Shown here: in pieces, positions 3,332 to 21,210 of the stretch
Numbering within the stretch: the stretch's first letter is position 1
How the letters are laid out: every line of letters begins with the position of its first letter
Assembly: GCA_016839785.1 (NCBI GenBank)
Contig: JAEOTQ010000052.1
Location: 1-26,010, forward strand
Length of the DNA stretch: 26,010 bases
Source of the DNA: Candidatus Hodarchaeota archaeon
GTDB taxonomy: Archaea; Asgardarchaeota; Heimdallarchaeia; Hodarchaeales; Hodarchaeaceae
Reading direction: 5' to 3'
Notes under the pieces: model-generated
What the model saw: only the letters and a program-made list of their open reading frames with translations
The model's database searches: none
What the model was told of the DNA's origin: nothing
Translations under genes and position numbers: made by a program

Positions 3332-3450
3332 TTTGTCAGACAACTCTTTATAAAGAATTCTGGACAGGATGAGTCATACATCCGCTATCCGGCAGGGTAG
3401 CAATACTAGAGTGTATACTATCCATTGGGACTACTTGGGGACCAGTGTGA
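3332..3450 (-). ncRNA. Putative TnpB omegaRNA (reRNA) scaffold / element right end; limits approximate
   Basis: Structured stretch overlapping the tnpB 3' end: hairpin GGATG-TATGACT-CATCC and long hairpin TGTCCAGAATTCTTTATAAAGAGTTGTCTGACA. This position is where TnpB guide scaffolds are encoded. Confidence 0.5.
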
Positions 3451-3897
3451 AACCGCTGAAGAATATTACAGGCGACATTGTAGTCGGCATTCAGGTGAAC
3501 TCCACACTTCTGACAGCAAAAAGAACCACGCGATGAACGATTTTTCTTCGCTAGATATCCACATTTACTACATTGCTGGGAGGTATACGCTTCGTTAACT
3601 CGGATTACGGTCATCCCAACCAGTTTAGCCTTATATTCGAGTATTTGCACAAGTTTAAGAAAGGGAAGCTGGACAAACGATTGATTGGTACGTTTTCCGA
3701 GGTTGCAATGGTGCTTCCACCCCGTATTATACCCAAGAACGAGGGTGTCAATATTCTGCGTTAAACAATAATTGATAATTCGACGGGAGGTTTGATGAAA
3801 GAAATCTTGGAGACGGTTTATCCTAACCCGATGAAGTCGCAGGATACGGCGAGTCAGGAGTTGATGATTGCAAGGGAGCGTGTTTTTTGGTGCGCAT
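3348..3897 (-). pseudogene. tnpB: TnpB RNA-guided endonuclease, C-terminal half only
   Basis: The frame of ORF 3348..3650 is open up to TAG at 3900-3902: ...RRILRLHRVRINRLQDFFHQTSRRIINYC...LVLGYNTGWKHHCNLGKRTNQSFVQLPF..LEYKAKLVG...NEAYTSQQCSKCG...CQKCGVHLNADYNVACNI. This covers the RuvC-II region, Zn finger and RuvC-III. RuvC-I and the N-terminal half are missing, and ATG 3897 is out of frame. Confidence 0.88.
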
Positions 3898-9400: not shown

Positions 9401-10897
9401 ATGGTTTCGATTAGAAGGATTCGCGTAAATCGATTTCTTAATGCAACTATATTTTTCTTATTGACACTTCTGCAGATGATCATTGTTTCATGGATTTCTA
9501 TTAGTCAAGTTCCAGAAGAAGGATCAGAATTTACATTTGCAAAGATTCTTGGATTTTATATCTCGATTAATCCGTTTTCAGAACTAGCTTTTACAGCTGT
9601 TTTAGTAATCCTAACAGGAGGATTGCAAATTTTGTTATTAGCATTCTTAGTAAACGTTGTTTTTTCAAACAAAAATATGATACAAATTTATCCACTACCT
9701 AAGCGAGGAATAGCTCATTTACCAGAAGAGGAACAATTAGTAAATAAAACTATAAATATTGTATCAAAAGTAGCAACCCGTGCAAAAATCAAGGTGAAAA
9801 AAATCTTTGTTTATCGAAAAAGCGTACCAAATGCTTTCAGTCTAGATTTAATACCTATTCCATTTTTACGAAGACCATATATAGTACTAAATACAAATGT
9901 ACTTGAAATACTCAATGATAATGAAATAGAAGCAGTAGTAGCACATGAACTAGCACACGTCAAACATGGGGATAGTTTATTTCGTTTAATCTTATCAATA
10001 CCCCGTTTATTTCTCAATCTTGCTTATTTATTCATCTATCTTCAAGTTCTAACAGGAATTCAAAACGCTCTGTTTGAAAACTTTAGACCGATAGATGCAA
10101 TAGAGAGAACGCTCTTTTTAGGGTTGATATATTTAATCATCGCAATCCTAACTAAATTCACTGTAAGGTTCTTGTATTCTGCGAATCGACAGGCTGAATT
10201 TTTATCTGATTATTTCGCTGCTCAGCTAGTAGGATCTGGTATCTTAATAAACTCGTTGATCCACCTGGGACAACGAAGTGAAACAATGCAAATTTTGTCT
10301 CACGAAATTGAATGGCTAAATGGATTAGCAGGAGAAAAAAAACCATCAGCTGACTTTATGCGTAATATAAATCATCGATTTCCTAGAACACAATTGAATG
10401 AGGACGTTGCACGAGAACTAGCACCTAGAATTTTTCTTGAGGAGAAGTTTTATCAGTTAATGACCGCCTACGGATTGAAAATAGATAAAGATTATCAGGA
10501 TAAGCTAATCATGCAGGCAGTACCTTCATTGTTGGAGAAAAGATCGAAATTTTTCGAAACAATGCATGATAATGAAGAAGTTCTCACTCCTACAAAGTTG
10601 AAAGAGAAGACAATTGATTGGCGAATTTTCGATTCTGATGAGAGTTATTACTTGGATGCAGAAGAACTTGATAATTTCATAATTACATTGCTTTCCCATC
10701 CTCAGAAAATGGTCTTTGAAAATGAAATCTTACAGACTTCAGAAAAGGACAGTGATCATCCAAATTTTAGAACGAGAATACTTCAAATATATAAAATCTT
10801 TCATCCACAAAACTACAGCAAGATTCTGGATCAAATCATGACTCAGAAGGACTCTACTGTTCATTCTGAAAGTGAAAAACCCACAAATACGGATTAG
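9401..10897 (+). CDS. M48/HtpX-family membrane zinc metalloprotease with a long insertion containing an EF-hand-like motif
   Basis: N-terminal TM helices, PNAF, AVVAHELAH (HExxH), third-ligand motif QAEFLSD and distal DHPNFRTRI. Confidence 0.88.
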   Translation: MVSIRRIRVNRFLNATIFFLLTLLQMIIVSWISISQVPEEGSEFTFAKILGFYISINPFSELAFTAVLVILTGGLQILLLAFLVNVVFSNKNMIQIYPLPKRGIAHLPEEEQLVNKTINIVSKVATRAKIKVKKIFVYRKSVPNAFSLDLIPIPFLRRPYIVLNTNVLEILNDNEIEAVVAHELAHVKHGDSLFRLILSIPRLFLNLAYLFIYLQVLTGIQNALFENFRPIDAIERTLFLGLIYLIIAILTKFTVRFLYSANRQAEFLSDYFAAQLVGSGILINSLIHLGQRSETMQILSHEIEWLNGLAGEKKPSADFMRNINHRFPRTQLNEDVARELAPRIFLEEKFYQLMTAYGLKIDKDYQDKLIMQAVPSLLEKRSKFFETMHDNEEVLTPTKLKEKTIDWRIFDSDESYYLDAEELDNFIITLLSHPQKMVFENEILQTSEKDSDHPNFRTRILQIYKIFHPQNYSKILDQIMTQKDSTVHSESEKPTNTD

Positions 10898-11934
10898 AAG
10901 TATAAAACTTTTTCTAACATGTTAAGGATTAATCGTTCATTTTCTGGTAAAAGAAATAGTTTCACGTTATTCATTCTGCGTAAATGCCCAAGAAGTGGTT
11001 TTGTTAGTTGCAAAGTTTGACGTCTAGGCGTAACAATGATTCTTACATCTTCAAATTTCCTCAAAACAGGTAAGAAATCTCTGCCTGAGGTTGCCAATAA
11101 ATCAGATATCAATACTAGGGTTTTTTTCTTAGTGATGATTGTAGAGAGTTCTTTTTGGGCTTTCATTAAAGCTGAATGAATATCAGTTTTTCCACCAGAG
11201 CTTAATTTAATCAATTTTTTCACAATTTGGCTGCTAGAAATCCTTTTATCCTTCATACTTTTAATTACAATAGGTTGTGTGTCAAAACCGACAATCCCCA
11301 TATCTTTTTTTTCTAAAGCTAAGCTAAAAATTATAGCAGAAATTATAATAAACTTCAAATGTTGAATAACGGAATGACTCTTATCAATGAGGAGAATAAC
11401 AGCTGACTTTCTTTCTTTTCGTTCTTCACAGACAACGTGTGAATAGTTAAAGGTGGCATCTCCCGAAGCTAAGAACTTAAATATAGTTTTTTCAATATTC
11501 CACCTTCTACCTGGCATATATGGTATTCTAAGAGGATATTTCGATCGATCAATACTATGAAAAAATGATTCAGAATGCCTTATCATTCTTGGGATTAGTA
11601 TTTTCATTAATTTTTTTTCAATAGATGGTTCTAGGTGATCTTTTATTTGAAAAATTAAACTAGATGACTCTAAAACAAGGTTAGAATCAAATTTATCCAT
11701 TTGCAAGACATCAGCTACTACATGAGGATATGATTCGGCTAATATCTCTACTGCGTATAAATTTCGTGATTTGAGGGCTTGTTCAGTAAATTCAATCGTT
11801 TTTGATGTATCTAATTTCTGTTGAAGTCGATACTCAAGGATGGTTTCAATTAGATTAACGTGTTGAGCTGAAGTTGATAATTTAATCGAATGGTTTGATA
11901 TTGCGGGACCTTTATCCCGCTTTATACGTTTTTT
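10894..11934 (-). CDS. vWA (CoxE-like) domain region; probably translated as the -1 frameshift extension of the upstream MoxR ATPase
   Basis: MIDAS motif LLIDKSHS, GGKTDI and LISD. The frame is open from 11943 to the stop at 10894, but the first TTG/ATG is only at 11706/11700. Confidence 0.85.
   Translation of the reverse strand, partial: KKRIKRDKGPAISNHSIKLSTSAQHVNLIETILEYRLQQKLDTSKTIEFTEQALKSRNLYAVEILAESYPHVVADVLQMDKFDSNLVLESSSLIFQIKDHLEPSIEKKLMKILIPRMIRHSESFFHSIDRSKYPLRIPYMPGRRWNIEKTIFKFLASGDATFNYSHVVCEERKERKSAVILLIDKSHSVIQHLKFIIISAIIFSLALEKKDMGIVGFDTQPIVIKSMKDKRISSSQIVKKLIKLSSGGKTDIHSALMKAQKELSTIITKKKTLVLISDLLATSGRDFLPVLRKFEDVRIIVTPRRQTLQLTKPLLGHLRRMNNVKLFLLPENERLILNMLEKVLYF
11903..11934 (-). 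other. Putative -1 programmed ribosomal frameshift signal (slippery heptamer plus stimulatory hairpin)
   Basis: A_AAA_AAC (11934..11928) in the correct phase of the MoxR frame, spacer GTATAAA, then hairpin GCGGGAT-AAAG-GTCCCGC (11920..11903). Confidence 0.75.
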
Positions 11935-12782
11935 GGTCTCTTGTCAAAAAAGATTTCAGTTGCAATCTCATCCAAACACTCCTCTATTGATCGTGAGATA
12001 TCAGGCTGTAATTTAACTTTACCGGAATACACTGCATTGATCGCTTGTGAAATTTGTTTTTCTTTGCTTTCTTCATCCATTAATAACTGTGTCAGTTGAA
12101 TTGCAGCGCGAATACTTGCACCTCGTTCAAAATTAGCTTCAGTTCGAGTCTTTTCCGTGAATATTACACATTTCTGTATTAACCCTTTATCAGTGCATCC
12201 TGTCCTTAATTTAACTATCTTTTCAGCGATTTTCCCAGTTTTATGAGTCAAATGAACTCTAATGCATCTATCGAAGAATGCTTCGGGAAGTGGATTTGTT
12301 CCAATATATTCTGCAGGATTCAGGGTGAAAATTGTGTAAAATCCGTCTGTGGCTTTTATAGACTTATATTGTGGAATTTCAATAGATCTTTCACTGTAAT
12401 CCATTGCAGAAAGTGCACCATTGATCGATTCACTTGGCGCGCGGTTTACTTCATTGAAAAAGAATAGTCCTCCGTTTAACATTGCTAATGTTAAAGGTCC
12501 TGGTATAAAGGATTTTTCCCCAAATCCTGATTCGATTACTAGTGCTGGATCAAACCACCCTCGAAGTTGTGTAATTGTTAAATTTTCATCCCCGTCCGCT
12601 CTGTAGAAGGGTCTCTTCAGAGACAAAGCAATTGTCTTGGCTAACTCCGTTTTTCCTGTTCCTGATTCTCCTTCAATAATTATACTGATATTTTGCTCAA
12701 TGGCTTTCAAAATAAGGATGATTTGGTCATCTAAATCGATAAGATTCTTCTTACACTCACCAAGGATTTTCTGAACTTGCAT
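11922..12782 (-). CDS. MoxR-family AAA+ ATPase (CoxD/CbbQ/NorQ-like)
   Basis: Walker A GESGTGKT, FIPGPLTLAM, Walker B variant FFNEVNR, TLNP, LPEAFFDR (Arg finger) and SIR sensor. GGTGA RBS. Confidence 0.92.
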   Translation of the reverse strand: MQVQKILGECKKNLIDLDDQIILILKAIEQNISIIIEGESGTGKTELAKTIALSLKRPFYRADGDENLTITQLRGWFDPALVIESGFGEKSFIPGPLTLAMLNGGLFFFNEVNRAPSESINGALSAMDYSERSIEIPQYKSIKATDGFYTIFTLNPAEYIGTNPLPEAFFDRCIRVHLTHKTGKIAEKIVKLRTGCTDKGLIQKCVIFTEKTRTEANFERGASIRAAIQLTQLLMDEESKEKQISQAINAVYSGKVKLQPDISRSIEECLDEIATEIFFDKRPKNV

Positions 12783-12825: not shown

Positions 12826-14799
12826 TTACTCAATATCAAGGAAGCTGCGTTTTAAGGTGACAAGTTCTTTATCTGTGTTATAGTCAATCCAACCCTCAGA
12901 CTCTAACTCCTTCATTAAACGTTCTGCGAAAACAAGTTGAATTGCCACCGTTTTTGCCAATTCCTTTACCGAGGCTTTTTGAATATCTTGAAGAACAAAA
13001 AGGATAGCATATTTTGGATTTTTGGAGAGATTTATTTTTAGAACTTCAACTGCTTGCTTATACTGCTCGGATTCTTCCTTTAATTTCGTCAGCTGACGAG
13101 TAAGCACATCATTCTCCCCGTTACTTTTTGTAATCTCATTCTGAAAGGTATTCAGTTTTTTTTCCAATCTTTGATTTTCATTGCTTGATTCTTTTAGCTG
13201 GATTCCTAGACTCTTTATTTCTACTTCATATGTCTCTTTTTGTCTTTCAAAGTTAGCACTTTTCGTTCTAGACCCATCAATCTCTTCCCTTAGACTTTCA
13301 TGCTTACTCCTAAAAGATTCTAATTCTTTTAATGCCTCAGTGGCTTCAAGGTTTTTGGTTTTAAGTTGAGTTTCATGCTCGAGGATAGATGATTTTTGTT
13401 TTTCATATTCGATCTTTAACGTTCCCAGATTCTCCCGGGCTTCATTCAGAGCTTTCTCTATGACATCAATTCGTTCATTTTTGGCCTGGATTTCCACTTG
13501 TAAATCTTCCGTTGAAGTCATGAGAGCTCTATTTTCTGTTCTTACTTTTTCCTTGGCTTCTTTTGCCTCATTGAGTCGTGATTGAAATTTCTCGATTAAT
13601 GTATTCTTTTCGTCCATTTCCTGTTGAGTATGTGTCAAGCTACCTTCTACTTGTTCCCTAGAAGACTCGCTCGAATCAAGTTTTTGCTTAAAATCAACTT
13701 TTTCCTTTTCTAAATTTTCAATCTTATTTTCTAATTGATTAATTCTGTGATTTAGGTCTTCTATTTCTTTAACCTTTTGATCAACAAGATTTTGAGAGTT
13801 TGATAGTTCTTTACGGACAGTTAATGCTTCTTCACTAGTTTCTCCTGAATCAATTACGAGGTCTTCATTTTCCTTTTCCAAAATTTGGTTTTTCTCTTCT
13901 AATTCGGCTATAGATTTCTTTACTTCTCTGATTTGAGAATTTAAAGCCTTATTTTCGTCTAATAGGTTGTCTGCTTGCTTTGATGAAGATTCTTTTACCT
14001 TATCAACTTCTTTTTGGAAAACAGTCTTTAAATTCGTAATTTCATTGTTTAATTCATTGTTCTGTTCTTTTAAGGTAATATTTTCTTCCGCATGACTGGT
14101 TAACACCTGAACTTCTGATTTTAAATTCTCTACTTCAATATCCCTATTACCAATTACAGTTTGTAGTTCTTCGATCTCTAATCTTGTAGTCATCAGAGTA
14201 TTTCCGATAACTTCATATTCTGCCTCAATTTTGTCCTTTTCTAATTTTGCTTGTTTCATTTCTCTCTGAGCTTCATCAAATAGCTCTTGAAGTCGATTTA
14301 TTTCTTCTAATTGTTCTTGATATTTTTCGGATGATGTTAAGGACTTTGATTTCAACTGAGATATTTCTGTTTCTTTTTCTCCTAATAATGTCTCCAAATT
14401 ACTGATCTTTTTCTCAAATGATGAAGCATCTGGTGCTTGTTGCTTAAGTGTTTCAATTTCATCCCGTAATTGCTGGAGCTCACGTTTGGAAATAAGGGTT
14501 GAATCTGACTCTGGTTGAATAAGATCAATATTATCTATATCTTTGAGTCCTCTTTTAGAAAATTCTGTATGTGCATCCTTATTAAAGGCAATCATTTTCT
14601 CTTTTAGACTCTCAATAATTTCTTCAACATCTTGCAATGTATAGTAAGATTTAGGTCTTGATTGAAGCCTCTGTACGCTACTCTTCATTTCAGATGAAAT
14701 TTCGTGTTCCAATTTTTGAGCTTGTTGGGCTATACTTCTTATAAAAGCAAGTTTGGGATTGTTACTGGCCAAAGTTCTGAACCCTCTATTTTTTGACAA
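12826..14799 (-). CDS. Long coiled-coil protein with a C-terminal winged helix-like domain
   Basis: About 550 aa of E/K/Q/L-rich heptad sequence followed by PKYAILFVLQD..KASVKELAKTVAI....AERLMKELESEGWIDY. No ATPase motifs. Confidence 0.8.
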   Translation of the reverse strand: MSKNRGFRTLASNNPKLAFIRSIAQQAQKLEHEISSEMKSSVQRLQSRPKSYYTLQDVEEIIESLKEKMIAFNKDAHTEFSKRGLKDIDNIDLIQPESDSTLISKRELQQLRDEIETLKQQAPDASSFEKKISNLETLLGEKETEISQLKSKSLTSSEKYQEQLEEINRLQELFDEAQREMKQAKLEKDKIEAEYEVIGNTLMTTRLEIEELQTVIGNRDIEVENLKSEVQVLTSHAEENITLKEQNNELNNEITNLKTVFQKEVDKVKESSSKQADNLLDENKALNSQIREVKKSIAELEEKNQILEKENEDLVIDSGETSEEALTVRKELSNSQNLVDQKVKEIEDLNHRINQLENKIENLEKEKVDFKQKLDSSESSREQVEGSLTHTQQEMDEKNTLIEKFQSRLNEAKEAKEKVRTENRALMTSTEDLQVEIQAKNERIDVIEKALNEARENLGTLKIEYEKQKSSILEHETQLKTKNLEATEALKELESFRSKHESLREEIDGSRTKSANFERQKETYEVEIKSLGIQLKESSNENQRLEKKLNTFQNEITKSNGENDVLTRQLTKLKEESEQYKQAVEVLKINLSKNPKYAILFVLQDIQKASVKELAKTVAIQLVFAERLMKELESEGWIDYNTDKELVTLKRSFLDIE

Positions 14800-15648: not shown

Positions 15649-18030
15649 TTATATTAATTTTTCCTGGATTAATGGCACTTGTCCAATAGAAATACACCCA
15701 TCTCCACAAGGGATTTGTTTGTGATATATAGGAGTGTATTTTTTACCTGCACTAACAATATTTCGATAAAATTCAGAAAATATCGCTTGATTGTAACATA
15801 CACCTCCAGACATTCCAATTTTTTCTATTCCATGTCTCTCTGCCATTAGAATTGAGACATCTGCTATCGTCTTTGCTAAACTCCTCTCTGCTGCATGAGC
15901 TAGTAAATATTTGTTTTTTCCCTCAAGCATCCCGTACCACACGGTTTGAAGAAGCTCTTTAGTCTGAATTTCGATAGAACCTACGCTATTCTTCTTATAT
16001 GGTATCTCTAAAGTAAGTTCTGAGTTGCTAATTTTATTTTTTGAAAAAGATTCAAGTTTAATTGCCGGTTCGCCCTCATATGTACGAAATTTGGTCACAC
16101 CAAGCATGACACTAAGAATATCAAGGACACGGCCACAGCTTGAGGTCAAGTTGTGACTGGAAATATTGTGATTTTTTAATTGTTTACTCAAAGAATTGAG
16201 AAGAAGTGAATAATTTTCAGAGTCTGTGATCCATTTTAGCCATGGAAGGGATTCAATGCTTTCAGTAACCTCCTCAGATGACATGAATGAAAGAAGATTG
16301 GCTAAAAATGCTCGATGAGGTTGTTTTATTGCTAAGTCCCCCCCTGGAATTGATAGAACTTCTAAGTGTGCTACTCTTTCAAAATTTGAGTAATTTCCCA
16401 TCAATATTTCTCCACCCCATATTGTTCCATCTTCTCCATAACCCGTTCCATCTAAAGCGGCACATATGATAGTCTCTTCGGGGTGTACTCCCGCATCAAT
16501 GGCTAACGCACTAAGATGGGCAAAATGATGTTGAAATTGAAAAAAAGGTACACCAGCTTTTTCCGACCATTCCTTACCAAGAGTAGTAGAAGAAAATTGC
16601 GGATGTAAATCGCCGCCTATTCCTTGAATTTTCTCAATCCCTAGTAAAGAACGCATATGCTTCATACTAAGTTTAAGAAATTCGATATTTTCTAACGTAC
16701 TGAGGTGTCCAATATGCTGGGTCGGAAAAACTCTTTTTCCTATGCCAATAGCACCAACTGTATGCATTTCTGCTCCTAATGCCATCACTACTGGAGCATT
16801 ATGCTTCCAAGGTAAAGATATTGGTTCAGGGACATAGCCCCGGCTCCTTCGAATTATTAATGGATATTCCTGGTTATCAAGTAAATGAAGACGGAGAACA
16901 CTATCATCAATACGTTGGTAAATAGTTCTATCATGGAGTAGAAAATAATCTGCAACTGTTGACAGATTTTTTTGAATTTGTGAATTTCTAATGAGTATTG
17001 GCATGTTGGAGGGATTACCAGAAGTCATTACTAATGCGGGATCATTTATACTATGAAATAGTGTAACATGAATTCCTGCATACGGAAATAATACCCCAAT
17101 ATTGTGTAAATTTGGAGAAATATATTCAGAAAGGGAATATTGGTCATTTTTGTCTAAGAGTAAGATTGGTCTAATATAGGAATTAAGATAATTTGCCTCA
17201 AGTAATGAGCAATGGGCAAATTGCTGGGTAGTACGTTGATTTTTTGAAATCACAGCAAATGGTTTTTCTCCTCTTGCGCCTTTCCAATCCCGTATTTTGA
17301 GAATTGGGTCATCAAGCATCGTTCTACACGCAATATGAGTACCTCCAATTCCTTTAATTGCGATTATATTTCCTTCATTAAGTAGTTTGGACGGGATATT
17401 CACATTTCTTCTAAAATCTTCAGGAGAAAGTATTATATTCCCTTTATTGTCAAGTAAACGATATTGAGGCCCACATTCCCAACAACAGGTGGTTTGAGCA
17501 TGAAATCGTCTATCAGTTGGATTAGTATACTCTCCTAAACACGTTGAACATAATGGAAAGTCCTCCATGACTGTCCTAGGACGATCATATGGTAAGGATG
17601 ATATTACTGAGTATCTTGGGCCACAGTCGACACAGGATGTGAATGGATAATTTAATCTACGTTGATCGAATCCCATTTCATTGATACATTTCTCACATAT
17701 CGGTAAATCTGGAGGAATATAAGACCCTTCATTCCCTCTTGTCAAAGTACTTTCAGCAATTTGAAACTTAGTGAGATAAGCATTATCAATTGAAGCAATG
17801 TCAAAATTTGTATCAAATTTCTCGTATCGCGCGAGAGGTGGTTTCAAGTGTTGTAATTCATCGATAAATGTTAGAATTTGACCTTTTGATCCTTTAATTT
17901 GGATTTCCACCCCTGCATCCCCTCTATTGAGAACAAAACCAACTAATTTGTGCCTGATAGCAAGGTTATAAACAAATGGTCGGAATCCGATACCTTGAAC
18001 CACACCATTTATCATGATTTGACAGTACAC
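15649..18030 (-). CDS. hypF: [NiFe]-hydrogenase maturation carbamoyltransferase HypF
   Basis: Acylphosphatase motif GVVQGIGFRPFVY, two CxxC-x18-CxxC Zn fingers, KGIGG, RRSRGYVP, QHHFAH, DGTGYG and GDGCISIGQ. Confidence 0.97.
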   Translation of the reverse strand: MYCQIMINGVVQGIGFRPFVYNLAIRHKLVGFVLNRGDAGVEIQIKGSKGQILTFIDELQHLKPPLARYEKFDTNFDIASIDNAYLTKFQIAESTLTRGNEGSYIPPDLPICEKCINEMGFDQRRLNYPFTSCVDCGPRYSVISSLPYDRPRTVMEDFPLCSTCLGEYTNPTDRRFHAQTTCCWECGPQYRLLDNKGNIILSPEDFRRNVNIPSKLLNEGNIIAIKGIGGTHIACRTMLDDPILKIRDWKGARGEKPFAVISKNQRTTQQFAHCSLLEANYLNSYIRPILLLDKNDQYSLSEYISPNLHNIGVLFPYAGIHVTLFHSINDPALVMTSGNPSNMPILIRNSQIQKNLSTVADYFLLHDRTIYQRIDDSVLRLHLLDNQEYPLIIRRSRGYVPEPISLPWKHNAPVVMALGAEMHTVGAIGIGKRVFPTQHIGHLSTLENIEFLKLSMKHMRSLLGIEKIQGIGGDLHPQFSSTTLGKEWSEKAGVPFFQFQHHFAHLSALAIDAGVHPEETIICAALDGTGYGEDGTIWGGEILMGNYSNFERVAHLEVLSIPGGDLAIKQPHRAFLANLLSFMSSEEVTESIESLPWLKWITDSENYSLLLNSLSKQLKNHNISSHNLTSSCGRVLDILSVMLGVTKFRTYEGEPAIKLESFSKNKISNSELTLEIPYKKNSVGSIEIQTKELLQTVWYGMLEGKNKYLLAHAAERSLAKTIADVSILMAERHGIEKIGMSGGVCYNQAIFSEFYRNIVSAGKKYTPIYHKQIPCGDGCISIGQVPLIQEKLI

Positions 18031-18181: not shown

Positions 18182-18439
18182 ATGTGTTTAGCTATACCTG
18201 CACAGGTTCAAGAATTCTTAGAAGATAGTATGATTATTGCCGACTTCGGTCGTGGAGTGAAAAGAGAGGTAAGCATAGCCTTATTAGGGGAGGAACTAAA
18301 GGTTGGAGATTGGATACTCATTCATACAGGTTACGCTGTATCAATAATGTCCCAAGAAGAAGCAATGGAATCTTTAGCGCTTTGGGAAGAACTTTGGAAG
18401 TCGGAGGAAGAAGCGAAAAAATCTTTCGGAGAATCTTAA
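18182..18439 (+). CDS. hypC: Hydrogenase maturation chaperone HypC/HupF
   Basis: MCLAIPA N-terminus (start must be ATG 18182 to expose Cys2) and VGDWILIHTGYA. Confidence 0.95.
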   Translation: MCLAIPAQVQEFLEDSMIIADFGRGVKREVSIALLGEELKVGDWILIHTGYAVSIMSQEEAMESLALWEELWKSEEEAKKSFGES

Positions 18440-19479
18440 CAAACACGAGGAATAGGCTCCCCAATAGGTTTATCCAAGATTCTATGCCCACCAATGGTCG
18501 TTTTTAGGAAGACTTGCCCTTTTCGGGAATCTTTAACCTGTCCAATCGCAACTGCTTGTTCCCCAAGATGATTAGATCTTAATAGATTCAGGACTTTGTC
18601 AGCATCGTCTGGATGGACTGCAATTATTGCTTTTCCCTCACAGGAAACATGCAAAGGGTCAATTCCGAATATTTCAGCTACGATTTTCACATCGTCTGAG
18701 AACGGAAGGGCAGTCTCATCAAGCCAAATGGAAACATTTGATTTGGTTGCCCACTCGGTTAAAACGCCTGTTAGTCCTCCACGAGTAGGATCTTTCATAG
18801 CGTGTACTCGATAGGCTAAAATGGGCTGAATTAAGGATTGTAATGCTGCTACATCTGATTTTAATTCGGTTTCTAGTTCCATTCCCTCTCTAGTAACAAG
18901 CATTGCAAATCCATGATCTCCTAGTGAACCTGTTGTAATAATAACATCTCCTGGAACAAGTGAACTATCAGTTATTCTCTGACCCGATGGTATTTCGCCA
19001 AGACCAGTTGTATTTATTATTAATCCAGTTTCATCCATCGATCCTATTGGCATGACCTTGGTATCGCCAGCAACAATACCAATCTTGTATTCTTCGGTAA
19101 TAGCAACAATGGTATCGATAATTTTAGCTAGATCGGCAAACTTTAGTCCCTCTCTTATTACAAGCGCAAGTGTCATTGCAATAGGATGGGCACCCATCAT
19201 AAGAAGATCATTTATCGTTCCAGCTGCTGCCAAAGTACCAATATTCCCTCCACGGAAAAATAACGGAGAAACCGTAAAGGAATCTGTAGTGAGAACAATA
19301 TCAATAGACCGATCTGGGAGAGGGATTATTGCTCCATCGTCGAATGATTCTACTCCTACTCCTTCTTCTGTAATTTTTTTAGTTTTTATTCGACTAGTTA
19401 TAAATTCAAGGAGAATATCCATTTTCTTTCCTCCTTGTCCCATGTCCAGCTCCACTATTTTGTAATCAATAGTATCCAA
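18436..19479 (-). CDS. hypE: Hydrogenase maturation carbamoyl dehydratase HypE
   Basis: TTDSFTVSPLFFRGG.IG.LA..GT.ND, GDTKV, MKDPTRGG and C-terminal PRVC. Confidence 0.97.
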   Translation of the reverse strand: MDTIDYKIVELDMGQGGKKMDILLEFITSRIKTKKITEEGVGVESFDDGAIIPLPDRSIDIVLTTDSFTVSPLFFRGGNIGTLAAAGTINDLLMMGAHPIAMTLALVIREGLKFADLAKIIDTIVAITEEYKIGIVAGDTKVMPIGSMDETGLIINTTGLGEIPSGQRITDSSLVPGDVIITTGSLGDHGFAMLVTREGMELETELKSDVAALQSLIQPILAYRVHAMKDPTRGGLTGVLTEWATKSNVSIWLDETALPFSDDVKIVAEIFGIDPLHVSCEGKAIIAVHPDDADKVLNLLRSNHLGEQAVAIGQVKDSRKGQVFLKTTIGGHRILDKPIGEPIPRVC

Positions 19480-19638: not shown

Positions 19639-21210
19639 ATGACTCTTGGACAACCTGATACAGTTATTTATAATGGGAATATAGTGACCTTCGACGATAA
19701 AAATACTACCGCACAGATGATTGCAATAACGGATGGAAAATTCAGTTATGTGGGAGACCACGATGAAGAATTAATTAAGAAGTCCAATAGGTCTATTAAT
19801 CTTGAAGGAAAAACTATACTTCCAGGCTTCATTGACCTTCATACACACCTTTGGACTGAAGCCAACATAATAGATGTTGATCTAGGCGGAATTAAAACAC
19901 GTGAAGATACCTTAAAGAAAGTAGAAAAAACTGTCATATCTAAAAAACCTCATGAGTGGGTTTTTCTCTCGGGTTGGGATGAATCTTTCTGGACCGATAA
20001 AAAAGAATTTCCTACATTGATAGAGTTAGATAGAATAAGCAAAATAAATCCTATATACATGAAAAGAGAAGATGGACACCTTGTTGTTGTGAATTCACTG
20101 GCATTGGAGCAGTTATCAATTCCAACAGAGCATAAAGGGGTAATGAAAGATAAAGATGGACTACCAACGGGGGTTTTGAAAGATGTTTGGCTTGATCTAA
20201 CCCCCTATTATCAGAAACTTATTCCAAGAAGTATTAAAGCATCCTGTGAAATTGCTGCATCTGTTGGAATAACAGCTGTTGTTGATAATCTTACTATCAT
20301 GCCAGAAGGTCAGAAAAACATCTTGAAGGAATATTTTGAGTTAGATTTAAAGAACGAACTGCCAATACGTATTTTTTTAAACCCAACTCGTGATTTGATG
20401 AAAAAATATGTTGAAGAAGGTGTAAAGCGAAACCAAGGAACTGATAAGTTGCGTTATTCTGGATATAAAGGTTTTTTTGATGGTGCAATTGGATCTCATA
20501 CAGCTATGCTATCTTTCGAGTATGTAGATGTAGGTAATAGGGGGGATAAATTTCTAGATGAAGCAGAGCTAGTGTCGCAGATTAAATTTGCAGAAGAAAA
20601 TGAGTGTACCATTTGCATTCACGCAATTGGCGATCAAGCTATAGAAAAATTGCTAGATTGCTTTGAAGAAGGAGTGAGAAGAGCTGGTAATGCCGTTACT
20701 ATGAATAAACATAGAATTGAACATGCTGAAATGATAAATGATATTCAAATTGGAAGGACGAAGAAACTTGGAATCATTCTTTCAATGCAACCCAACTTTT
20801 TGAAATGGCAATATCCTGGAGAATTATACGAACAGCGTCTTGGAAAAGACAAAATATCCTCATTAAATCGGTTTAACAGAATTTTACAATTAGGAGCTCA
20901 TTTGTCCTTTGGTTCAGATAATATGCCTCTCTCTCCATTATATGGAATACGTCAGTCAGTTATTTTTCCTTCAAAAGATACACAAATATCAGTAAAAGAG
21001 GCAATTAGAGCATACACTATAAATAATGCAGTTTCTCTATCCGTAGAACACGAATTAGGCAACATTGTTGAGGGAAAATTTGCTGATTTTGTTATCTTGG
21101 ATAAGTCACCATTTGCTCTAGACTCTACAAGAATAGAGGAAATAAACGTGGTAAAGACTTATGTTCAAGGACTGTGTGTATACAATGGAGAATTGAATTC
21201 AACAAATTAA
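19639..21210 (+). CDS. Amidohydrolase 3 family (YtcJ-like) metal-dependent hydrolase
   Basis: PGFIDLHTH, K.FFDGAIGS.TA, IHAIGD, RIEHAE, GSD and GKFADFVIL. Confidence 0.92.
   Translation: MTLGQPDTVIYNGNIVTFDDKNTTAQMIAITDGKFSYVGDHDEELIKKSNRSINLEGKTILPGFIDLHTHLWTEANIIDVDLGGIKTREDTLKKVEKTVISKKPHEWVFLSGWDESFWTDKKEFPTLIELDRISKINPIYMKREDGHLVVVNSLALEQLSIPTEHKGVMKDKDGLPTGVLKDVWLDLTPYYQKLIPRSIKASCEIAASVGITAVVDNLTIMPEGQKNILKEYFELDLKNELPIRIFLNPTRDLMKKYVEEGVKRNQGTDKLRYSGYKGFFDGAIGSHTAMLSFEYVDVGNRGDKFLDEAELVSQIKFAEENECTICIHAIGDQAIEKLLDCFEEGVRRAGNAVTMNKHRIEHAEMINDIQIGRTKKLGIILSMQPNFLKWQYPGELYEQRLGKDKISSLNRFNRILQLGAHLSFGSDNMPLSPLYGIRQSVIFPSKDTQISVKEAIRAYTINNAVSLSVEHELGNIVEGKFADFVILDKSPFALDSTRIEEINVVKTYVQGLCVYNGELNSTN

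Follow-up and report, generated by a model that had tools for sequence, protein, structure and literature searches.

A candidate programmed -1 ribosomal frameshift linking a MoxR-class AAA+ ATPase to a CoxE-like vWA domain in Hodarchaeales archaea

Chelatase genes of the chlD type undergo a -1 shift on an A-rich heptamer, and a short AAA+ protein and a long AAA+-linker-von Willebrand factor A-type (vWA) protein are made from one gene (PMC3711429; PMC9227772). Frameshifting of this kind on A-runs is described for chelatase genes including archaeal ones (PMC3711429; PMC5009743), and frameshifted archaeal chelatases were predicted in Methanocaldococcus and Methanococcus (PMC3711429). Here, we analyzed 26,010 nucleotides (nt) of a Candidatus Hodarchaeota archaeon (Heimdallarchaeia, Hodarchaeales; positions 1 to 26,010 of contig JAEOTQ010000052.1, assembly GCA_016839785.1; hereafter the window), in which the end of a MoxR-class AAA+ ATPase gene overlaps a vWA open reading frame (ORF) in the -1 frame. 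Comparison of related loci suggests that this is probably a programmed -1 ribosomal frameshift cassette, with two proteins encoded in one mRNA.

The closest precedent is the frameshifted chlD gene, and by analogy our locus would work like chlD without being a member of its family. The two share the position of the site at the end of the AAA+ ORF, the A-rich heptamer, a short and a long product from one gene, and the existence of relatives fused in frame. In contrast, our locus belongs to another protein family and another lineage (Heimdallarchaeia) and has no chelatase context. Its downstream hairpin is conserved in sequence or covaries, whereas the structure in chelatase genes is presented as not strongly conserved (PMC5009743). 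A first-pass annotation of this DNA, made from the sequence alone, had likened the locus to chlD, and published descriptions of chlD bear this out as an analogy (PMC3711429; PMC9227772).

Two other frameshifted genes share some of these traits. The fucA1 gene of Saccharolobus solfataricus, the single archaeal -1 shift listed as experimentally shown, is a cellular gene with two ORFs joined by a -1 shift on an A-rich heptamer, with a putative downstream stem-loop; a single A separates it from its full-length homologues, and two strains were reported with the split form (PMC8211752). Compared with fucA1, the gene analyzed here is split in 47 species of two families. Since its zero frame already encodes a complete AAA+ protein, two functional products would be expected. 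Escherichia coli dnaX (tau/gamma) combines an A_AAA_AAG heptamer and a downstream hairpin with a shared AAA+ N-terminus and a product ratio said to fit the stoichiometry of the complex (PMC3711429). In dnaX, however, the shifted product is the short one, whereas here it would be the long one. An upstream Shine-Dalgarno-like stimulator also acts in dnaX.

At the protein level, a single vWA finger occupies the pore of a six-module ring in NorQD and Midasin (PMC13036017). NorQ/NorD, CoxD/CoxE and Midasin/Rea1 resemble our locus in that an AAA_5-type ATPase goes with a vWA domain bearing a metal ion-dependent adhesion site (MIDAS). NorQ and NorD, however, are separate proteins, and Midasin is a giant chain with six AAA modules, whereas at this locus the parts would be joined only by recoding. 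A literature search found no earlier description of a MoxR/vWA frameshift or of an Asgard one, although the supplementary cluster tables of PMC3711429 might list MoxR/vWA pairs of other taxa.

The cassette lies on the minus strand. The zero-frame ORF (11922..12782) encodes the short product, a 286-amino-acid (aa) MoxR-class AAA+ ATPase, with Walker A (P-loop) codons for residues 38-45, read from the translation, at 12648..12671. Its 3' end reads CCA AAA AAC GTA TAA (stop TAA 11924..11922), which places the slippery heptamer A_AAA_AAC (11928..11934) in the X_XXY_YYZ phase of the zero frame. A 7-nt spacer that includes the stop (11921..11927) separates the heptamer from a candidate stimulatory hairpin of seven pairs, one of them G-U, with a 4-nt loop (11903..11920). 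The -1-frame ORF (10894..11943; 349 codons plus stop) is open from 11943, directly after a TGA at 11946..11944, to its stop at 10896..10894, and would supply the C-terminal part of the trans-frame product. None of its first 79 codons is ATG, GTG or TTG; the first such codon is TTG 11706 (codon 80), and ATG 11700 is a further internal start-type codon. The conserved start-less coding region (11707..11927) comprises the linker and the helical N-terminal region of the vWA part. All statements and positions of the first-pass annotation on the ORF end, heptamer, spacer, hairpin and start-less frame proved correct on recheck.

The general rule for -1 frameshifting is an X-XXY-YYZ heptamer followed by a structure 5-9 nt downstream (PMC8211752). 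The window has this canonical layout: an in-phase heptamer within the frame overlap, a 7-nt spacer, a stable stem, a prompt stop and a start-less -1 ORF. A genome-wide scan returned 15 ORF pairs with a -1 overlap and an in-phase heptamer; among them the MoxR/vWA locus had the longest start-less stretch, 72 codons beyond the upstream stop.

MoxR ATPases act with vWA partners. The AAA+ ORF matched Pfam AAA_5 (1e-15; 58.4 bits, cut-off 22) and AAA_3 (1.6e-11; 44.6 bits, cut-off 27), and these scores above the curated cut-offs, together with the Walker A motif, assign it to the MoxR class. The -1 ORF matched VWA_CoxE (1.1e-7; 32 bits, cut-off 26.4) over residues 144-288 (11080..11514) and VWA_2 (1e-6; 29.7 bits, cut-off 27). 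Its MIDAS residues D187, S189, S191, T253 and D281 were invariant in 35 sequences, the D-x-S-x-S motif (residues 187-191; 11371..11385) falling in invariant alignment columns, as in a CoxE-like vWA domain. From family membership, the two parts would function as a MoxR ATPase and its vWA partner. The best solved structure for the AAA+ ORF was the eukaryotic Midasin/Rea1 AAA ring (2.7e-24), followed by bacterial MoxR 2r44 (1.4e-7) and NorQ (2.8e-6). A profile search with the vWA alignment against the PDB matched no solved structure, Midasin included, at E <= 0.01. Membership of two families was rejected: for ChlD/BchD, the AAA+ ORF scored 23.6 bits and a natural fusion 21.6 bits with TIGR02031 (cut-off 499.55); for Midasin/Rea1, each chain has one AAA module rather than six, and the vWA profile lacks a Midasin match.

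In the mechanism that we propose, most ribosomes would reach the AAA+ stop one codon past the heptamer and release the 286-aa ATPase. Some would pause on A_AAA_AAC, with the hairpin 7 nt downstream resisting unwinding; the tRNAs in the P- and A-sites would then re-pair one base back (tandem slippage), and reading would go on in the -1 frame. In the resulting trans-frame product of ~629 aa, a conserved helical linker would connect the AAA+ module to a vWA domain whose MIDAS is intact. Both products would accumulate and, by analogy with NorQ/NorD and Midasin, may co-assemble as a ring with few vWA tails. Outnumbered by short subunits, the fusion subunits would make such a ring asymmetric.

A six-frame search of 41 genomes detected the vWA ORF in 20 of the 21 other genomes of the genus and in the window's own. 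One of these (G015), in which the gene is split across two contigs, was excluded, leaving a genus set of 20 loci, the window and 19 others. Public records of these loci carry the names Candidatus Hodarchaeota, Hodarchaeum mangrovi or Heimdallarchaeota metagenome-assembled genomes. In most of the 19 other loci the matches span residues 2-4 to 348 of the vWA ORF, the 79 start-less codons included. The AAA+ and vWA frames were in -1 relation in all 20, and every locus carried an in-phase A-rich heptamer at the AAA+ ORF end (AAAAAAC in 6, AAAAAAT in 1 and AAAAAAA in 13). The A-run measured A6 in seven loci, A7 in eight, A9 in one, A10 in two, A11 in one and A13 in one, with more than seven As only in L006, L015, L018, L019 and L020. 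The zero-frame stop lies 1-15 nt past the run, and the two open frames share 13-91 nt. The shortest overlap, 13 nt in L002, L003 and L006, is essentially the A-run alone, which pins the site of the frame change.

To delimit the orthologous group, profiles were run first against 83 genomes from the class and subsequently against 400 from the phylum. It was found only in the home family (20 of 21 genomes), in a second family, f3 (27 of 31), and in f6 (1 of 1). The f3 vWA proteins share 26-30% aa identity with that of the window. The f3 loci carry an invariant A7 in the same phase (27/27), its first A being the last base of a zero-frame codon; the frames are in -1 relation in all 27 and overlap by 22-31 nt in the 26 loci with an AAA+ match, and the stop is 3-6 nt beyond the run. 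Both the -1 relation and the in-phase heptamer therefore recur in all 47 orthologous split loci (20 genus plus 27 f3), and in 46 of them, all those in which the AAA+ stop was located, the zero-frame stop follows 0-5 codons after the heptamer. Heptamer, phase and -1 relation, whose conservation in orthologues had been put forward as a check, were thus kept throughout.

No conserved vWA start codon was found among the 20 genus loci. The first ATG, GTG or TTG of the -1 frame after the A-run is 0-191 codons away (median 39.5) at non-homologous positions; in 18 loci no start codon lies between the opening of the frame and the run, and two have an ATG upstream of the run. In L006 the first start is 191 codons downstream, within the vWA domain. 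The columns of the window's TTG and ATG are occupied by I, L, T, S or F in other species. These findings bear on a reading as two separate genes, in which the vWA protein would start at a non-canonical codon, by reinitiation once ribosomes have terminated at the AAA+ stop, or at TTG 11706 or ATG 11700, and the open frame and hairpin would serve elsewhere, e.g., in mRNA stability or translational coupling. In public gene calls the vWA protein does stand alone, with 212-361 aa and the label 'hypothetical protein' or 'VWA domain-containing protein', 14 of the 27 f3 loci have an ATG 24-25 codons past the A-run, and a paralogous pair in the same genomes shows an ATGA stop-start overlap in two loci (L024 and L077), where stop-start coupling is a rival reading. 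A normal vWA start in orthologues had been named in the first-pass annotation as a finding against its proposal; in the genus no start is conserved, and in about half of the f3 loci a separately started vWA protein is possible. In the f3 loci, a conserved peptide is found upstream of that ATG in the -1-frame translations.

Coding constraint on the start-less codons also speaks against two genes. In the four closest species (six pairs), differences in residues 16-79 were distributed 64/32/191 over the three codon positions, with 80% aa identity; in the rest of the gene they were 312/145/824, with 78% identity. By this measure the start-less region and the rest of the gene show the same pattern of purifying selection. 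In the protein alignment, the two lysines encoded by the A-run mark the exact point from which the -1 frame is conserved, with no conservation before them, and a well conserved, helical-looking block lies upstream of the window's TTG. An in-frame fusion, described below, exists in a relative. We consider two separate genes very improbable. Lacking its own start codon, the vWA part appears in the genus to be made only as a frameshift fusion.

The window hairpin has a minimum free energy of -12.7 kcal/mol (ViennaRNA; z = -3.22), and none of 200 shuffled sequences folded as well. A GC-rich stem at a constant offset from the end of the A-run was present in 17 of the 20 genus loci, with 92.4% of stem cells paired versus 44-52% when the 3' partner was slid. 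Since the arms coincide with -1-frame codons for Arg, Asp, Pro and Ala, constraint on the protein was tested as the alternative. The arm codons were CGG in 17/17 and CCC in 17/17. Elsewhere in these 17 genes, CGG was absent from all 51 cells of the three further columns of invariant Arg, and each of the seven further columns of invariant Pro drew on two to four codons; over the genome, whose G+C content is 36.1%, CGG accounts for 7.6% of the codons for Arg and CCC for 16.6% of those for Pro. The two most divergent genus loci, L019 and L020, lack both the arm peptide and the stem. The invariance of the arm codons, together with the joint absence of stem and peptide in these two loci, indicates that the constraint acts on the nucleotides.

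Two other readings of the hairpin were considered. An origin from a repeat or mobile element was rejected, as the motif occurs once in the 4.04-Mb genome. As to an intrinsic terminator, at least four Ts come after the hairpin in just 2 of the 17 loci, as judged by eye on the alignment with no terminator scan made. In L018, a by-eye comparison with L008 gave the impression that the 5' arm is deleted and the 3' arm retained.

The f3 hairpin differs in sequence from that of the genus and provides the covariation. Among 25 distinct cassettes, left after removal of two duplicate rows, all seven pairs showed changes on both sides, with 17 double-sided cells observed versus 5.9 expected. Paired cells amounted to 86.9% versus 38-59% after sliding, and the covariation score was reached by 0 of 500 shuffles. 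RNAalifold added an invariant 3-bp lower helix, which gives an 8-nt spacer; without it, the distance to the upper stem is 13 nt.

In the f6 locus (L071), the AAA+ and vWA parts lie in frame within a single ORF of 643 codons, and the junction sits at an A6 encoding two lysines. Four protein clusters of 633-635 aa share this fused form, one of them named Candidatus Kariarchaeaceae by one source. In-frame fusions in relatives, which had been suggested as something to look for, thus exist. An exhaustive search with the f6 fusion also matched many proteins of ~580-660 aa over both halves at 25-33% identity. Ten fusion clusters were looked up, and their named members (Hodarchaeales, Borrarchaeum, Promethearchaeota and Kariarchaeaceae) are Asgard archaea. 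Since fusions are frequent among distant Asgard relatives, this survey of sequences indicates that the fused architecture is the common state in Asgard archaea and the state split by one base the special one. No close in-frame fusion of the window's own vWA protein was found among proteins of 612-2000 aa, which is weak evidence. Top hits of the search with the f6 fusion include giant proteins of 2000-6100 aa with four to eight matched stretches.

A junction at the A-run in the relative's fused form, and the error-prone nature of homopolymers, are what could be expected if the locus were a broken fusion gene or an assembly error, with one base lost from the A7 of a single fused gene. The first-pass annotation had asked whether the run is A6 or A7. 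Assembled Logan contigs, which are not raw reads, from three other DNA runs of three studies bridge the A6 without an indel: X2 record 3 (11758-12244) and X3 record 6 (11820-12084) show zero differences to the window, and X4 record 7 (11609-11972) three substitutions. This comparison left out run X1, from which the present genome may derive. The same-phase split, moreover, recurs in 47 of 47 loci in independent assemblies of different species, whose vWA ORFs are 26-83% identical in aa sequence to that of the window; purifying selection acts on both frames, and the stop stays within 0-5 codons of the heptamer wherever it was located. The three contigs from other samples and the 47 split loci rule out an assembly error, and loss of a base from a fused gene is close to refuted.

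Two further observations were made on these sequencing data. In the metatranscriptome run X7 (an RNA library), which covers a small part of the window, contigs span 11786-11936 and 11978-12128; the first stops 2 nt beyond the A-run, and neither bridges it. At window position 11921, the contigs from X4 (DNA) and X7 have C for T on the plus strand (G for A on the minus strand). This variant lies directly 5' of the stem and replaces a Lys by an Arg in the -1 frame; the same G is found in 9 of 17 aligned relatives.

These comparative data, namely (i) the conserved signal, (ii) the constrained hairpin, (iii) the fusion in a relative and (iv) the A6 in other samples, support the programmed -1 recoding put forward in the first-pass annotation. 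Several points weigh against it. The genomes are kin, and the locus counts are not independent trials. A 2021 review lists one archaeal -1 frameshift as experimentally demonstrated (PMC8211752). Covariation of the genus stem is near nil: four of the seven pairs never vary, and the closing pair alone changes on both sides (GC, AU and GU). The case for a structure in the genus rests on the invariance of synonymous sites and on folding energy; of the hairpin conservation proposed as a check, the stem stood in 17 of 20 loci and the compensatory changes came from f3. The hairpin is missing from L018, L019 and L020, the 8-nt spacing in f3 hinges on the 3-bp lower helix, which shows no covariation, and the ATG of 14 f3 loci is to be counted here as well. 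Finally, the runs of A9-A13 in five genus loci are also suited to transcriptional slippage.

In transcriptional slippage of a programmed kind, RNA polymerase would add one A in some transcripts and the same two proteins would result, since an extra A brings the downstream sequence into the frame that a -1 shift would reach. The loci without a hairpin are exactly those with A10, A10 and A11, the longest runs apart from that of L015, and they may have switched from stem-stimulated slippage to slippage driven by run length. In chelatase cassettes, efficiency rose with A-run length, and runs of more than seven As were slippage-prone (PMC3711429). The window, however, has just A6, short of the 'An, n > 7' given for transcriptional slippage in that work; runs are A6 or A7 in 15 of the 20 genus loci and exactly A7 in all 27 f3 loci. 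The fixed X_XXY_YYZ register and a hairpin 7-8 nt downstream are not needed for polymerase slippage, and no variation in A-run length was seen in the DNA contigs. Transcriptional slippage is more likely at the A10-A13 loci without a stem and less likely at A6/A7 loci with phase and stem; as an account of this locus we judge it the main rival, though unlikely. We infer from phase, run length and stem that the slippage is probably ribosomal.

The vWA locus is mis-annotated throughout the public records, and the fusion is missed. The records examined (P0076 and P0183-P0237) use varied internal starts and cover 60-99% of the open frame, and none of the names listed for them mentions a frameshift.

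The neighboring upstream gene (12826..14799, minus strand), which ends 43 nt ahead of the AAA+ start, encodes a 657-aa coiled-coil protein; its matches, SMC/Rad50-like for the coiled coil and MarR-like at the C-terminus, are weak. Searches by tblastn placed it upstream of the AAA+ gene in 18 of the 19 further genus loci, the exception (L015) starting inside the AAA+ gene, and it is possibly co-transcribed with the AAA+ gene. On the plus strand, a convergent M48-family metallopeptidase gene (9401..10897; Peptidase_M48, 1.5e-17) overlaps the end of the vWA ORF by 4 nt at its 3' end; it recurs in 18 of the 19 other loci, the exception (L018) ending at a contig end. A HypF carbamoyltransferase with all five HypF domains (15649-18030) and an AIR-synthase-related, HypE-like gene (18436-19479) lie a few kb upstream on the same (minus) strand.

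The paralogous MoxR-vWA pair mentioned above has 25-28% identity to the window's vWA protein and a -1 cassette of its own. In all nine genomes examined from the home genus, the two frames are in -1 relation, T_TTT_TTA immediately precedes the stop, and a 7-bp stem follows 5 nt past it. In this genome (G000), the cassette is on contig C122 at ~3360-3480 (locus L097:990-1053); further paralogue loci are L074-L081, L024, L082-L086 and L093-L095. In f2, f3 and f5 the paralogue shows the -1 relation with T_TTT_TTA/C/T, one locus having T_TTT_ATA. In f4 the relation is +1 in seven of seven loci, with an ATG shortly after the stop in six.

Another overlapping pair of the same genome, on contig C137 (~20316-20415; L096:917-1016), consists of a RecA-like P-loop ORF of 272 codons that overlaps an XPD-like helicase ORF by 100 nt. 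The helicase ORF (644 codons) is in the -1 frame, with an in-phase A_AAA_AAG in the overlap and no start before its Walker A motif. This pair was rejected as a conserved frameshift, with a copy of the XPD-like ORF in just 1 of 24 other genomes (G005, 47% identity); the other helicase matches are a 31-34% paralogue that G000 carries too, on contig C19. Judged by its distribution, the C137 pair may represent a broken gene or belong to a variable island.

If the cassette is what the comparison of loci suggests, the finding has consequences for annotation, since the vWA starts in public records are arbitrary internal ones and the fusion is overlooked. Judged on sequence conservation, this would be the second archaeal cellular case and a much better conserved one, found in 47 species from two families and with a stem-loop that covaries, in the Asgard lineage, in which translation is of special interest. 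A wider proposal, which we put forward tentatively and hold to be doubtful as it stands, is that the frameshift doses about one MIDAS subunit per hexamer of tail-less AAA+ subunits and that, with the paralogue, -1 heptamer and stem-loop signals are a regular expression device of Heimdallarchaeia; in Asgard archaea these would also be the first cellular sites of -1 frameshifting with good support. Were it true, an archaeal class that includes Hodarchaeales would set by translation the layout of six AAA modules to one MIDAS that Midasin/Rea1 fixes in one chain. The short cassettes, A-rich here and U-rich in the paralogue, could be used to probe how archaeal ribosomes, Asgard ones included, respond to frameshift signals, and the locus would offer a testable model of how unequal amounts of MoxR ring and vWA adaptor are maintained.

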